A stretch of 64,000 nucleotides of DNA from Caenispirillum bisanense. GTDB lineage: Bacteria > Pseudomonadota > Alphaproteobacteria > Rhodospirillales > UBA2165. The stretch is taken from positions 8,596-72,595 of the forward strand of contig CAMDWJ010000019.1 in the NCBI GenBank assembly GCA_945877815.1. The letters run 5' to 3'. Of the stretch, positions 34,818-39,807 are shown one piece after another; within the stretch, counting starts at the first letter, position 1; each line of letters begins with the position of its first letter. Below the pieces are notes generated by a model. It was not told the DNA's origin, did no database searches, and saw only the letters and a program-made list of their open reading frames with translations. A program made the position numbers and the translations under genes.

Positions 34818-34902
34818 CCTCATGCTGAGCCCGTCGAAGCATGGAGGCACCCCAATCCTTCGACAAGCTCAGGATGAGGGCATCAACAAACTCAGGATGA
34901 GG
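34818..34902. repeat. Family-A intergenic palindromic repeat
   Basis: cctcatgctgagcccgtcgaagcatgg (34818-34844) and ccttcgacaagctcaggatgagg (34857-34879), plus an extra ctcaggatgagg (34891-34902). Confidence 0.8.
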
Positions 34903-34912
34903 ACATTAAAAC

Positions 34913-35758
34913 CTACGCCAGCGCCGCCGCCAGCAAATCGCGCAGTTCGCGCCAGCGCGCTTCGTCGGCGGCCAGGATATAGCGGCCTTCCTGCATGGCG
35001 CCCGGCCGGTAGATGCCGCCATCCTCGGCCCGCCCACTATGCCCGCCGGCCTCGGCGTGCAGCAAAACGCCGGCGGCGTGATCCCAGGCCTTGAGCTGCC
35101 CATACATGGCGAAATCCAATTGGCTGCGGATGAGTTCCATATATTCGCGGCCGCAGCAACGGTGGCGCAGCATCTCGCGCGGCACCGGCGTGCCCTTGGC
35201 CTGTCCCATCTCCTCCAGCCGGTCGCGCGGTCGCTTCGGGACCGAGCCGCGCATGGCGGCGACATCCACGGAAGGCGACGCGAGGCGAATCCGCCCCTTC
35301 GCATCCCACGCCCCCTCGCCCAAAACACCATGGATCATGTCGTCGGCAAGCGGATCGTAGATCCAGCCGGCCTTGGTCTCGCCGGCAACCGCGAGCGCGA
35401 TGATGACCGCGAAGATCGGACGTCCCTCGGCGAAGTTGCGCGTGCCGTCGAGCGGATCGACGATCCATACCGGCTCGCCACGCGTGAAATGCTCAATCAC
35501 CGATGCGTCGGCGGCATGGCCCTCCTCGCCGACCACAACGCTGCCCGGCAGCAGCGCGCTCAATTCGGCCTCCAGGCGCTTCTCGGACGCGATGTCGGCG
35601 GCGGTGACGATTTCGCCGGCGGCCTTCTCGTTGATCTCATGGCGCTCGAGCTTTTCGTAGCGCGGTAAAATCTCCTCGGCGGCGATGCGGCGCACGATCT
35701 CGCTCACCGCGGCGGGATCCGGAACCTTAAAAGACGTGATTTTGGAAGATTCGGTCAC
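34913..35758 (-). CDS. Inositol monophosphatase family protein
   Basis: EEG.., WIVDPLDGTRNF and WDHAAG motifs. I propose the GTG at 35758 as the start of ORF 34913..35818 (uncertain). Confidence 0.82.
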   Translation of the reverse strand: MTESSKITSFKVPDPAAVSEIVRRIAAEEILPRYEKLERHEINEKAAGEIVTAADIASEKRLEAELSALLPGSVVVGEEGHAADASVIEHFTRGEPVWIVDPLDGTRNFAEGRPIFAVIIALAVAGETKAGWIYDPLADDMIHGVLGEGAWDAKGRIRLASPSVDVAAMRGSVPKRPRDRLEEMGQAKGTPVPREMLRHRCCGREYMELIRSQLDFAMYGQLKAWDHAAGVLLHAEAGGHSGRAEDGGIYRPGAMQEGRYILAADEARWRELRDLLAAALA

Positions 35759-35925
35759 GATTCGAACTATTCTCCGTCCCCGCGAATGGCCCGGCGCGCG
35801 GCGTTCTCGGCCTCGCACGCCACTCTACTCTTAGAAAGCGACAATCCAAGGGCGGTTTCGACGTTTTAATTTACCTGAAATTCGCAAATTTATCCCGGAA
35901 AACCGCCATTCAAGGGCGAAACAAG

Positions 35926-36046
35926 ATCGACATTGGGGCGACACCGGATCGCCATTCGATCGACACGGGATCGACATCGGATCGACATTTCATCTACATC
36001 CTGTCGACATCCGATCTACCGAAGCTCAACACCCCATCGACAGGTT
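35926..36046 (+). repeat. Array of eleven head-to-tail 11-bp units with conserved heptamer ATCGACA
   Basis: Units read from 35926: ATCGACATTGG GGCGACACCGG ATCGCCATTCG ATCGACACGGG ATCGACATCGG ATCGACATTTC ATCTACATCCT GTCGACATCCG ATCTACCGAAG CTCAACACCCC ATCGACAGGTT. The register is exactly 11 bp throughout. Confidence 0.9.
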
Positions 36047-36309
36047 TTTTTGGGGGGCTTGATCGATAGACGTCGCCCGCCCAAAAGGCCAGCCTCGGCG
36101 AGCAGTCTAGCCGAACGGCTGTTGAAAATAAAGAATTAAATTCTATTTATAAGGATATAATGGATTAAGAATCTTCGAACCGATCCGTCGGCGCGGATCA
36201 CGCAGTTCAAGGGGCGCGGACAGAATGCTCAACGCGCGACGGACTCGCTGTTCGGTTCGTGCCCAGGGCGGGTGGCATTTTTGGCCAAGTTCGCCACGAT
36301 CGTATCGTA

Positions 36310-36338
36310 TTGAATGTATTTGTATATGATAGTAATAC
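36310..36338 (+). promoter_or_regulatory. Putative sigma-70-type promoter of brnTA with an embedded inverted repeat
   Basis: TTGAAT (36310-36315), a 17-nt spacer, then TAATAC (36333-36338). GTATT/AATAC inverted repeat at 36316-36320 and 36334-36338. The brnT ATG at 36345 has no upstream SD, which would fit a leaderless transcript. Confidence 0.35.
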
Positions 36339-36344
36339 ACACTT

Positions 36345-36659
36345 ATGATCGATTTCGATCGGATCGACGGATTCGAGTGGGATGACGGCAACCGCCGCAA
36401 GAGCGAGGACAAGCACGACGTTGCTCAGGCCGAGGCGGAGCAGATTTTCTTCAATCGGCCACTGCTGATGCTGGACGATGTGACGCACAGCGCCGCTGAA
36501 CCCCGATTTCTGGCATTGGGCCACACCGATGCCGGACGGCACCTGTTCGTCGCCTTCACGCTGCGTCAAAGTGGCCGGCAAGACGGAACCAAAATCCGCG
36601 TGATCTCGGCCCGCGACATGAACCGCAAGGAGCGAACCCGCTATGCCTCGCAAAGCTGA
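36345..36659 (+). CDS. brnT: BrnT-family (DUF497) type II toxin
   Basis: FEWDDGNRRKSEDKHDV N-terminal signature and a RVISARDMNRKER tail. Confidence 0.85.
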   Translation: MIDFDRIDGFEWDDGNRRKSEDKHDVAQAEAEQIFFNRPLLMLDDVTHSAAEPRFLALGHTDAGRHLFVAFTLRQSGRQDGTKIRVISARDMNRKERTRYASQS

Positions 36660-36933
36660 CAAGGCACCTGCCACGCCCCGCAAACCGGTCCCGCGCTTTC
36701 GCGGCGAGGCCGAGGAGCGCGCCTTTTGGGAAACGCACGATTCAACCGACTATGTCGATTGGAACCGCGCGACCGTGGCCGAATTTCCCAACCTCAAGCC
36801 GACCACCACGGCAATTTCGCTCAGGCTTCCGGTCGGGCTGCTCGACCGCATCAAGATCGCGGCCAACAAGCGCGACATGCCCTATCAATCGCTCATCAAA
36901 GCGTGGCTCGCCGAAAAGGTTGAGAGGTCGTAA
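36643..36933 (+). CDS. brnA: BrnA/CopG-type ribbon-helix-helix antitoxin
   Basis: Overlaps brnT by 17 nt. FWETHDSTDY and ISLRLPVGLLDRIKIAANKRDMPYQSLIKAWLAEKV. Confidence 0.82.
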   Translation: MPRKADKAPATPRKPVPRFRGEAEERAFWETHDSTDYVDWNRATVAEFPNLKPTTTAISLRLPVGLLDRIKIAANKRDMPYQSLIKAWLAEKVERS

Positions 36934-37004
36934 GCGCAACCTTGCGCTACCGCCCGTAAAGATGCTTCTGGAACCCGACGACGGCATCGCGGATGCGCCG
37001 CCAT

Positions 37005-37931
37005 TCAGCCGGCTCCGGCATCGAAAAAATCCTCGTCGATCTTCTTAATATGCAGGATTTGCTCGTCACGACAGCCGATGTTGTAGCGCGTCATCAATCG
37101 CGCAAGCTGAATACCATCGATCAAGACAATGCGCGAACCAAGATCGTGGGCGGTCTGAATGGCGTTCGGGCTAAAAGCCGATGTCGTAACAAAAATTCCC
37201 TTGTGTGCCTTCTTGAGACTCAATGCGCCGAAGAAATCACGGATAGCCCCGGCCCCGATATTGTTTCCATCGGCGTACCGCTTCGCCTGAAGATAAATTT
37301 GATCCAACCCCAACGCATCCTGATCGATGACACCGTCGATACCATCATCCCCGCTCTTGCCTAAGGCGCGCCCGGCATCTTCCGAAGTGCCGCCATAGCC
37401 CATGGCCAATAGAAGCTCGACGATTAAATTCTCAAAAAATGCCGGCGGGGCTTGGCGTACACGGTCCAAAAGATCAGCCGCGAGCGCTTCATTGATTTGC
37501 TTGTGTGCCGCGCGCAGCACTTCATCGGGTGTCGCGGTACTTTCGATCACGGCCTGAGCAAGCACGGCGGGAGCACCGATTTCCTTGGTGTTCGTGCGTG
37601 CACGGAATTCCTGGAACTCGGGGAACTGTTCGAGATAGGCAACATCTATCGTAGCCGCGCCGTGGGCCAACGCTGCCTTGCCGCGATCGGTTATCACGAA
37701 ATGTGCCCATTTCGTCGGCCGTACGAGGCCAGCTTGTTTGAGGAAACTTTTGGCCCAATGAACACGGTTGGCGAAACGAGTCTGCTTACCGCTGGGAAGC
37801 AATTCATCCCGTTCGTCCTGGGTCAGGCCGAGTTTGCCGGCAAGTTCTTCGACGACTTCGCCGATCCGCGCTTCGCCCGCAGCAGCGCATTCAAGCACCG
37901 GGCGCATAAGTGTCTCATGATCCGGAATCAT
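37005..37931 (-). CDS. mrr: Mrr-family restriction endonuclease (Mrr_N winged helix plus Mrr_cat nuclease)
   Basis: MIPDHETLMRPVLECAA...FANRVHWAKSFLKQAGL N-domain. Catalytic region SGDDGIDGVIDQDALGLDQIYLQAKRY. I chose the start at ATG 37931 within ORF 37005..38018. Confidence 0.85.
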   Translation of the reverse strand: MIPDHETLMRPVLECAAAGEARIGEVVEELAGKLGLTQDERDELLPSGKQTRFANRVHWAKSFLKQAGLVRPTKWAHFVITDRGKAALAHGAATIDVAYLEQFPEFQEFRARTNTKEIGAPAVLAQAVIESTATPDEVLRAAHKQINEALAADLLDRVRQAPPAFFENLIVELLLAMGYGGTSEDAGRALGKSGDDGIDGVIDQDALGLDQIYLQAKRYADGNNIGAGAIRDFFGALSLKKAHKGIFVTTSAFSPNAIQTAHDLGSRIVLIDGIQLARLMTRYNIGCRDEQILHIKKIDEDFFDAGAG

Positions 37932-38043
37932 TCCATCCCCCAAGAAACCCCAACTCATGCTGCCGTTTGGGTTGCACGGCCGCAACGACAATCCACTTCG
38001 CGCGGCAAGCCGGACCACCCAAAGCGGTCGATAGCGCCCTCAC

Positions 38044-38067
38044 CCTTCGACATGCTCGGGATGAGGG
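38044..38067. repeat. Family-A repeat, solitary right arm
   Basis: ccttcgacatgctcgggatgaggg matches the right arm of the family-A palindromes. Confidence 0.6.
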
Positions 38068-38161
38068 TCATTACCGGAATTCCTTGACGCTTCGCGGGAA
38101 ATGTTCTTGAATTGTTCTTATCATATCCTATGCGATTGTACATGAAGGTTCGCGACATCAT

Positions 38162-38350
38162 TTGATTGATCATGGACACGCGCGTTCTTGGAGTTGGTAT
38201 CTGGTGACGACACGCGGCAGTCATCGGCAGTATAAACATGCGACGAAGCCTGGGCGCGTGACGGTGGCGGGAAAACCGTCCGACGATGCCGGGCCGGGCA
38301 CGCTGAGCAGCATTCTGAAACAGGTCCAATCGACGAAGGACAAAAGTTGA
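38162..38350 (+). CDS. hicA: HicA-family toxin; the N-terminus is possibly frameshifted
   Basis: WYLVTTRGSHRQYKHATKPGRVTVAGKPSDDAGPGTLSSILKQ is a canonical HicA core. The ORF starts at TTG. A typical HicA opening, MKVRDII (ATG 38142), lies in a different frame just upstream. Confidence 0.75.
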   Translation: MIDHGHARSWSWYLVTTRGSHRQYKHATKPGRVTVAGKPSDDAGPGTLSSILKQVQSTKDKS

Positions 38351-38556
38351 TGCGCTACGCGGTGGTGATCGAACAGGCCGAGGGCAATTATTCGGCCTAT
38401 GTGCCCGACCTGCCCGGCTGCGTCGCAACCGGCGCAACCATCGCCGCCGTCGAGCGTGAAATCCGCGCGGCCATCCGCTTCCATATCGAAGGGCTGACGG
38501 AGGACGGCGCCGCCGTGCCCGCCCCCAGCAGCATCATCGAATATGTCGAGGCGTAA
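38350..38556 (+). CDS. hicB: HicB-family antitoxin
   Basis: MRYAVVIEQAEGNYSAYVPDLPGCVATGATIAAVEREIRAAIRFHIEGL. The ATG overlaps the hicA TGA (TGATG). Confidence 0.85.
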   Translation: MRYAVVIEQAEGNYSAYVPDLPGCVATGATIAAVEREIRAAIRFHIEGLTEDGAAVPAPSSIIEYVEA

Positions 38557-38576
38557 GCGGGCGAAGGCCGGTCGAA

Positions 38577-38849
38577 ATGAACGAAAAAGATACCGCGCAA
38601 TTCTCGGCGGATGAACTCAAGGCGCTGCGCGCGCGCGGCGCAACCGCGACCCGCGCCGACGCGCCCGAACGCGCCGTCGAGCCTGAATTCTGGCGCACCG
38701 CACGCGTCGTCCTGCCCGGCCCGAAAACCTCGATCCATCTGCGCGTCGATACCGACGTGTTCGAATGGTTCCGCGCGCGCGGCAAGGGGCATCTCAGCCG
38801 CATGAACGCGGTGCTGCGCTCCTATATGGAGGCCCATTCGCGCGACTGA
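38577..38849 (+). CDS. BrnA/DUF4415-family antitoxin-like protein with no adjacent BrnT
   Basis: C-terminal block SIHLRVDTDVFEWFRARGKGHLSRMNAVLRSYMEAH is typical of this antitoxin family. It lies 20 nt downstream of hicB on the same strand. Confidence 0.7.
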   Translation: MNEKDTAQFSADELKALRARGATATRADAPERAVEPEFWRTARVVLPGPKTSIHLRVDTDVFEWFRARGKGHLSRMNAVLRSYMEAHSRD

Positions 38850-39002
38850 AGCGTGGGGCCCCGATAAGTCGAAAGATGGATACGCGGGTCCAGTGTTTAG
38901 CCGCGACATGACGGACGGATCAGTCCCTCTTGCCGCCCCTGTCCCTCCCCTATATCGATAGCGACCCCTGAGTATTCTGCCTCCCCGTGGGACCCAAAAC
39001 GA

Positions 39003-39587: not shown

Positions 39588-39807
39588 CCCACTGCTGTCC
39601 GGTTTAAATCGGCCGTCATGCCTCGGCTTGCCCCGAAATCCTCATCCTGAGCCTGTCGAAGGATGGGCAGCGGCCCCCCTATGCTTCGACAGGCTCGGCA
39701 TGAGGCACGCATTGGAGCAAGTCCTCGTCCGAATCGAGCATGCAAAAAGCATAACCGCCGTAAGGCATTGCGCGGCCTCAGTACATTTTAAACCGGACAG
39801 CAGTGGG
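39588..39807. mobile_element. Miniature inverted-repeat element (about 0.2 kb, no coding capacity) with perfect terminal inverted repeats and a flanking direct duplication
   Basis: CCCACTGCTGTCCGGTTTAAA at 39588-39608 is the exact reverse complement of TTTAAACCGGACAGCAGTGGG at 39787-39807. GGACAAGCCC occurs directly outside or overlapping both ends (39581-39590 and 39806-39815). Confidence 0.7.
39640..39705. repeat. Family-A palindromic repeat (complete copy), located inside the miniature element
   Basis: cctcatcctgagcctgtcgaaggatgg ... gcttcgacaggctcggcatgagg. Confidence 0.8.

Follow-up and report, generated by a model that had tools for sequence, protein, structure and literature searches.

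Apart from plasmid centromeres, origins of replication and a handful of response-regulator operators, DNA seldom carries arrays that present a dozen binding sites on the same face of the double helix. The parC centromere of plasmid R1 contains about ten 11-bp direct iterons, each taken by roughly one ParR dimer, and also serves as a promoter operator (PMC2241845). In Escherichia coli oriC, arrays of low-affinity DnaA sites share one orientation and an 11-bp centre-to-centre spacing, and guide the cooperative growth of a filament (PMC6727663). PhoP operators are assembled from two to eight 11-nt direct repeat units (DRus), strong and weak units being mixed and bound cooperatively; class III operators carry weaker 'extension' units beside strong 'core' units (PMC2275107).

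An array of similar geometry lies in a 64-kb stretch of DNA (64,000 nt, the window) from an uncultured alphaproteobacterial lineage, where it sits in chromosomal core DNA and bears a clear signature of selection. It offers a short, well-defined bait for finding its putative binding protein, marks the exact border of a hotspot for toxin-antitoxin (TA)/Mrr cassettes, and may reveal how promoters of housekeeping genes live side by side with defence cassettes that are exchanged rapidly. The analysis also brought to light, as a side result, a strongly conserved orphan family of 89-aa proteins and an almost invariant 12-bp palindromic site, neither of which has been described before.

Results

An array of eleven in-register units

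The features of the window discussed below are as follows.

34913..35758, minus strand: inositol-monophosphatase-family gene (IMPase), 281 aa, GTG start, the first gene downstream of the array
35824..35835, no strand assigned: degenerate palindrome remnant TCTACTCTTAGA, with 2 mismatches to TCTACTAGTAGA
35915..35925, minus strand: weak twelfth, promoter-proximal unit, GGCGAAACAAG, TTTCGCC on the minus strand
35926..36046, minus strand: iteron array of 11 head-to-tail 11-bp units, from sequence read-out and period statistics
36045..36057, no strand assigned: T7G6 tract (C6A7 on the minus strand), bordering the distal end of the array
36058..36125, minus strand: spacer from the distal box to the array
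36129..36144, minus strand: distal box AGAATTTAATTCTTTA, at the junction with the variable TA/Mrr islet
36345..38849, no strand assigned: variable islet with BrnT, BrnA/CopG, Mrr, HicA, HicB and an orphan BrnA-like gene; context, outside the array module

A sequence-only reading that preceded this analysis had listed eleven consecutive, in-register 11-bp units from 35926; reading out the sequence returned exactly these units and the same tally of the plus-strand core ATCGACA, which is perfect in five units, has one mismatch in three and two mismatches in three. On the minus strand, the sense strand of IMPase, the core is TGTCGAT, and the units run as TGTCGAT plus four variable bases in the register 36042->35922. 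The weak twelfth unit is also found in the second strain, L120 (fetched loci are numbered with an L). The T7G6 tract lies where that reading had placed it and is species-specific, being C4A7 in strain L120 and absent from L127 and L219. The interval between the IMPase start at 35758 (minus strand) and the BrnT start at 36345 is non-coding, and the ORFs that cross the array are merely the translated repeat, both as originally proposed. No Rfam family matches this interval or eight related loci.

The eleven-unit array is far above chance. TRF reports periods of 11, 22 and 33 at 35914-35989, and, when units with at most two mismatches are counted, the array has an in-phase run of 11, the only one of that length, whereas the best run on the opposite strand of the window is 2. 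Self-identity at an 11-bp offset, taken over 110 bp, reaches 0.63 at the array; elsewhere in the 64 kb it is at most 0.40, and none of 200 shuffles gave more than 0.48. TGTCGAT-N4-TGTCGAT dimers with at most three mismatches number 23 against an expected 7.9 +/- 2.7, and ten of them fall in the array.

Comparison with described systems

Like R1 parC, which is bound by the ribbon-helix-helix (RHH) protein ParR, the array consists of ~11-bp tandem direct iterons in a similar number (about ten there, 11 units of 11 bp here). The R1 iterons, however, are divided five and five around a promoter, whereas the array forms one block upstream of a promoter, on conserved chromosomal synteny rather than on a plasmid or low-copy mobile replicon. 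No par gene is found within about 12 kb, where parM and parR would adjoin a parC site, and a blastn search of 72,556 plasmids gave no match to the array. The neighbours are IMPase, BrnTA, Mrr, HicAB and TerB. The parC precedent suggested by the sequence-only reading thus did not hold, whereas its remark that no partition, replication or regulator gene explains the array was correct for about 12 kb around it.

The DnaA precedent fared no better. The single orientation and the 11-bp spacing recall the low-affinity arrays of E. coli oriC, and a layout of 9-mers 2 bp apart does describe the array, in geometry only; the oriC arrays have flanking high-affinity boxes and an origin context, whereas the array has neither. 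No match to TTATCCACA with at most one mismatch occurs in the interval, and no high-affinity anchor boxes flank it. Over the 64 kb, the cumulative GC skew runs monotonically, without a switch, which bears on oriC and not on sites of the datA or DARS type. The core ATCGACA is indeed one mismatch from ATCCACA, as had been pointed out, but the units match the DnaA box at six of nine positions at best; arrays of related genomes (TGTAGAG) fit the DnaA box still worse. The core position that drifts among relatives, C or A in TGTNGA, aligns with the G in TGTGGATAA, and the relaxed DnaA-box consensus keeps that G fixed.

Operators of Streptomyces PhoP and E. coli PhoB are also close in layout, with contiguous head-to-tail 11-nt units, each a conserved block and less-conserved bases, upstream of a gene; the array likewise has head-to-tail units within the 10-11-bp range, with a conserved block and a variable spacer. 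The core is nevertheless GTNGA here and GTTCA/TGTCA in PhoP/PhoB operators, the unit number is 11-14 as opposed to 2-8 in PhoP operators, and the array ends 45-100 bp before the -10 element whereas PHO boxes replace the -35 element. The Pho-box half-site CTGTCAT shares TGTC with the array core. A Pho box was rejected nonetheless, as no pair of units in the array fits CTGTCAT-N4-CTGTCAT with up to three mismatches. The only response regulators in the window are NtrC and NtrX, both of the sigma-54 type.

Arrays in related genomes

An IMPase protein identical to that of the window is encoded on two metagenome contigs, L120 and L121, which represent a second strain in which the array again has 11 units. 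Between these two strains, the only pair available for this comparison, the arrays differ by one 11-bp deletion, one 11-bp duplication and a few substitutions, all within the five distal units, and the total stays at 11. Such gain and loss of whole units implies that slippage or recombination does operate on the array. Two other species-level lineages, represented by L127 and L219 and with IMPase proteins 73-76% identical to that of the window, carry arrays in the same place and orientation: 14 units in L127, mostly TGTAGAG with some TGTCGAT/G, and 11-12 units in L219, mostly TGTCGAG. The spacing is 11 bp throughout, save for a 21-bp step over a degenerate 10-bp unit in L127 and a first unit of 12 bp in L219, the latter read by eye.

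Comparison of the interval in close relatives, which the sequence-only reading had suggested as a check, thus shows that, in those relatives that carry the array, its 11-bp period and its orientation are kept, with 11-14 copies and a core that drifts between C and A from lineage to lineage. Both period and orientation have been retained where the proteins differ by about 25%, a distance at which neutral DNA no longer aligns. From the cores and invariant positions shared across the lineages, the common contact would appear to be GTNGA, offered once per helical turn.

The distribution of the array is patchy. It is absent from L126, L211 and L122, the last having only a 107-bp spacer although its IMPase is 89% identical to that of the array-bearing L127, and in the IMPase tree array carriers are interleaved with array-less relatives. 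Among 84 loci that bear the palindrome described below, only L127 and L219 have at least three upstream matches to GT[AC]GA[GT]. In L128, five 10-bp units of TGCCTAK, with another core and another period, occupy the same place, even though an associated protein, p89 (see below), is 97% identical in L128 and L127. These L128 units (1330-1380) read TGCCTAKTTT in full, and their phased T-tracts would make intrinsically curved DNA.

Conserved cores and free spacers

In the window, core positions match the unit consensus in 68 of 77 cases (88%) and spacer positions in 23 of 44 (52%; Fisher p = 2e-5). The same contrast is found in L120 (92% versus 55%), L127 (90% versus 39%; p = 7e-11) and L219 (88% versus 45%; p = 1e-6), the Fisher p values of the four arrays ranging from 2e-5 to 7e-11. 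Positions G2, T3, G5 and A6 of TGTNGAK are conserved to ~100% in each of the four. The information content of the window unit is high over positions 1-7, with 1.6-2.0 bits at T1, G2, T3, G5 and A6, but falls to about 0.2 bits at positions 9-10.

Tandem 11-bp repeats with the same pattern were collected from unrelated genomes and phages, genome contigs being scanned for three copies of TCGACA at 11 bp; among the matches listed, most are near-perfect, spacers included. Near-perfect copies are the look of young slippage products, from which the array differs by its sequence. A minisatellite would be expected to show similarity over the whole unit with no position-specific constraint, and the contrast between core and spacer in four arrays does not agree with that expectation. 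Concerted evolution could inflate the similarity between units.

A module of distal box, array, palindrome, p89 and IMPase

In all array-bearing loci, the elements follow a fixed order and one strand orientation: a divergent TA cassette or TerB, the distal box, 70-150 bp, the array, 45-100 bp, the palindrome TCTACTAGTAGA, p89 and IMPase. The distal box is AT-rich, with the consensus GGAATTTAATTCTTGA and an internal palindrome GAATTTAATTC, and among 230 fetched loci (1.4 Mb) it is restricted to those that bear the array. The spacer between box and array at 36058..36125 is about 87% identical between the two strains and not conserved in other species; it holds an imperfect hairpin, CAGCCGTTCGGC...GCCGAGGCTG.

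The palindrome stands upstream of p89 in relatives L122-L128 and L131-L219. Its 10-bp core CTACTAGTAG occurs, sometimes twice, in 84 of the 96 loci fetched in the palindrome search, a set that includes six loci obtained through IMPase homologues and several duplicate contigs. The palindrome often overlaps a -10-like TAGAAT hexamer downstream of TTGACA and may therefore be the promoter/operator of the operon; in the window its remnant is a putative promoter/operator, P1, that would now drive IMPase. In L127 and L219, the last unit of the array starts 46 bp before CTACTAGTAG, in L219 through a TGTCGGG unit placed by eye. The only matches to the palindrome in a search of the literature were BioBrick scars.

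In the other relatives with upstream sequence, IMPase is preceded by an orphan gene, p89, whose product is always about 89 aa. It is missing from the whole 64-kb window (tblastn) and from strain L120. Comparison of window positions 35759-35850 with L122:4721-4990, L127:2492-2761 and others indicates that the gene has been deleted, and by a coordinate estimate a deletion of roughly 270 bp would have fused the p89 promoter region to the IMPase gene. That the array itself is a remnant of p89 was considered and rejected, tblastn of p89 against the window being without a match. Pfam, a PDB sequence search and AlphaFold with Foldseek gave no fold for p89, nor did a profile search of 1.84 billion representatives or hhalign against the CopG/BrnA protein of the window; the AlphaFold monomer is all-helical. 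On present sequences, p89 and the palindrome probably form an undescribed autoregulated system.

In a more distant group (L137, L142, L149, L150, L154 and L170), about 210 nt separate the palindrome from p89 downstream of it, and after the palindrome comes a well-conserved leader, about -230 to -1 before the p89 ATG, of the form ...TTAACCATAT...CCAACCGATTGCCGCG...GGGGGGTCGCCTGCGGCAACGGGGAA...GCTTGGCCGGGGG. No Rfam family matches this leader, which may be an unknown leader RNA or a small ORF.

When L122 and L127 are aligned by eye, the segment from distal box to array stands out as a clean indel. It measures about 400 bp, and its end falls a few bases short of the palindrome, on the upstream side. 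Judged from such alignments, the box-to-array module is a discrete segment of 300-400 bp that is either present or absent. Since close relatives do without it, it must be dispensable for expression of p89-IMPase. It would have been either lost repeatedly or transferred horizontally, and it possibly travels with TA cassettes.

Chromosomal setting and the cassette hotspot

The gene order of the window is ntrBC, ntrYX, trkA, hfq, hflX, lrgAB, SBP, TerB, the islet, IMPase, a dehydrogenase gene, mazG and cobalamin genes, and the synteny ntrBC-ntrYX-trkA-hfq-hflX...mazG-cob is conserved in relatives; the locus is chromosomal core. Beside the distal box lies a cassette hotspot (window 36150-38900, L120:1-2200, L128:485-1068 and L219:142-727). 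The site is flanked by BrnTA in the window, by HigBA in L120, L128 and L219, and elsewhere by TerB. The islet of the sister strain comprises HigBA, Mrr and BrnT, with HigBA in place of BrnTA as the pair next to the box; its Mrr is 76% and its BrnT 41% identical to the counterparts in the window.

The two strains diverge by 0.6% over the IMPase gene but by 13% over the 105 bp on the far side of the array. So steep a rise indicates that recombination has had a breakpoint within the array or next to it. An attachment-site duplication was not found, as the other end of the islet has no matching array or direct repeat. The array has been retained through exchange of its distal neighbour (BrnTA, HigBA or TerB) and through deletion of p89. 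An antitoxin operator was rejected, as the array persists beside different cassettes or none; BrnA and HicB, named by the sequence-only reading as candidate binders, are likewise unlikely, given that the array is kept at loci with HigBA or TerB as the neighbour instead.

Several intergenic gaps of the window (34863-34906, 38041-38066 and 39640-39696) hold GC-rich, palindromic REP-like elements (…CCTTCGACA.GCTC.GGATGAGG…), which yield spurious ORFs containing 'LRQAQDE'.

Discussion

Cores are conserved and spacers free in four arrays, and the second strain and other species share the period and the orientation. The array therefore looks like a series of protein-contact motifs in helical phase that selection has maintained, and not like a product of slippage. 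Both of these general propositions of the sequence-only reading therefore stand. The explanation that we favour, and to which we attach about an even chance, is an upstream iteron operator on which a sequence-specific protein polymerises cooperatively along one face of the DNA and modulates the adjacent promoter or promoters. The array would be a cis-acting operator of 11-14 head-to-tail sites, one per helical turn, in which each unit TGT[C/A]GA[T/G] offers a GTNGA contact on the same face. A putative DNA-binding protein would load cooperatively to give a filament-like nucleoprotein complex, placed 45-100 bp upstream of the palindrome-bearing (p89-)IMPase promoter and downstream of the AT-rich distal box, where it would most likely tune the promoter of the IMPase operon, the divergent neighbouring promoter, or both. 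Here we infer the binding of a protein, its cooperativity and the adjacent promoter as its target. Established designs with one protein per unit support this reading (PMC2275107, PMC2241845, PMC6727663). By analogy, the geometry would best fit a winged-helix protein of the OmpR/PhoB type that binds head-to-tail, or a small RHH-type protein. The design of the array is thus already known, but none of the families tested accommodates this example; what is unusual is the combination of 11-14 units, a chromosomal core location, modular presence and absence, a position at the border of a TA hotspot and an association with p89 and the palindrome.

Several other explanations have to be weighed against such an operator. 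A neutral minisatellite at a recombination hotspot, amplified by slippage beside the site of the TA cassettes and now decaying without function, would account for the exact 11-bp deletion and duplication between the two strains, for the recombination breakpoint in or next to the array and for the presence and absence of the module among close relatives, and perfect 11-bp tandem repeats are common in genomes. We nevertheless consider it improbable, because neutral decay should strike all 11 positions equally, whereas in four arrays from three species-level lineages four positions are near-invariant and the spacers near-random, and because period and orientation outlast about 25% protein divergence. 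An operator for an OmpR/PhoB-family response regulator, whose winged-helix monomers would sit head-to-tail on 7+4-bp repeats and activate or repress the IMPase operon, seems unlikely in its turn, if less so. In its favour are contiguous 11-nt units of about 7 conserved and 4 free bases on the sense strand, upstream of the promoter, and the TGTC common to the core and to the Pho-box half-site CTGTCAT; however, CTGTCAT-N4-CTGTCAT finds no match at up to three mismatches, the L127 units read TGTAGAG, no regulator gene of this family lies within about 12 kb, and the array does not abut the -35 region. Weak units stand beside strong ones as in PhoP class III operators, yet 11-14 contiguous units exceed the 2-8 reported (PMC2275107). 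The factor that recognises TCTACTAGTAGA, possibly p89 itself acting as an autorepressor, might also spread along the repeats: their cores, GTAGA/GTCGA, are similar to the half-site GTAGA of the palindrome, the L127 units are TGTAGAG, the window keeps GGTAGAT and TGTAGAT units, and the window, which has lost p89, also has two mutations in its palindrome. This factor would have a widespread site, CTACTAGTAG being present in 84/96 fetched loci (duplicates and six IMPase-derived loci included) and the palindrome overlapping the -10-like TAGAAT hexamer in several of them, and the basic N-terminus of p89 has an alternating K-x-Q-x-N pattern that, read by eye, is reminiscent of ribbon-helix-helix strands. 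On the other side, searches of Pfam, of PDB sequences and with Foldseek gave p89 no match, its AlphaFold monomer is all-helical, most p89 loci are without an array, and L127 and L128 combine p89 proteins that are 97% identical with different repeat cores. Moreover, the array of the window is as well kept as in species that have p89, although p89 is absent from the 64 kb, and the 5-mer half-site match, with a chance expectation estimated at roughly 2%, is suggestive only. We regard this explanation as decidedly improbable.

A role at the level of RNA would have a promoter at the distal box transcribe the array as a leader or small RNA, whose UGUNGAK repeats bind or sponge an RNA-binding protein. 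By eye, a -35/-10-like TTGAnn-17-TAnnnT recurs at the same position of the distal box in all five sequences, and the units always point the same way with respect to the genes that follow; even so, a consensus promoter scan calls no distal-box promoter on the sense strand, no Rfam family matches, and folding z-scores are weak or absent (-2.4 and -2.1 for the window, both strands folded, and +0.7 for L127). An exact 11-nt phase, moreover, has a natural meaning on duplex DNA and not in unstructured RNA, which leaves this role very improbable. We give almost no credence to a DnaA-titrating or DnaA-oligomerising array of the oriC, datA or DARS type, or to a parC-type centromere. ATCGACA is one mismatch from ATCCACA, but the position at which the core drifts is fixed in the DnaA box consensus, the window has a monotonic GC skew, and near the array there is no DnaA box even when one mismatch is allowed. 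The 11-bp period does equal a 9-mer plus 2 bp (PMC6727663) and the length of an R1 parC iteron (PMC2241845); the setting, however, is a single block in conserved chromosomal core with no par or rep genes, and the array has no match in 72,556 plasmids.

Beyond the iteron operator that we favour, distal box and array together might constitute a new kind of chromosomal nucleoprotein site, on whose 11-14 GTNGA iterons a putative protein polymerises. This is a speculative reading that we hold to be unlikely. Such a site could insulate a housekeeping promoter from the cassette island, or could be the recombination or capture site of the island. If this reading were true, the site, the orphan p89 and the invariant palindrome would make up an uncharacterised regulatory system of Rhodospirillales-like alphaproteobacteria.

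Similar arrays in other genomes

A metagenome-assembled genome of Parapedobacter sp. (L031:7828-7915) contains about ten 11-bp units with a conserved core, TTCGAC, and variable spacers; phased conserved-core arrays therefore also exist in Bacteroidota. In gene orientation this core is TGTCGAA, and the array lies upstream of a gene for a secreted putative member of the TlpA/thioredoxin family, as read from the sequence.

A scan of viral sequences found 11 phage contigs with arrays of three TGTCGAT copies, which are short, near-perfect repeats in AT-rich promoters; their number is compatible with chance among generic 11-bp tandem repeats. In the IMG/VR sequences L221, L227, L228 (3089-3117) and L229 (782-810), short tandem arrays are accompanied by dispersed copies of TGTCGATTT in AT-rich non-coding DNA, and TGTCGATTT is probably a phage regulatory motif. 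The arrays of L228 and L229 lie 200-650 bp upstream of an ORF for a putative phage GroEL-like chaperonin, as read from its translation.
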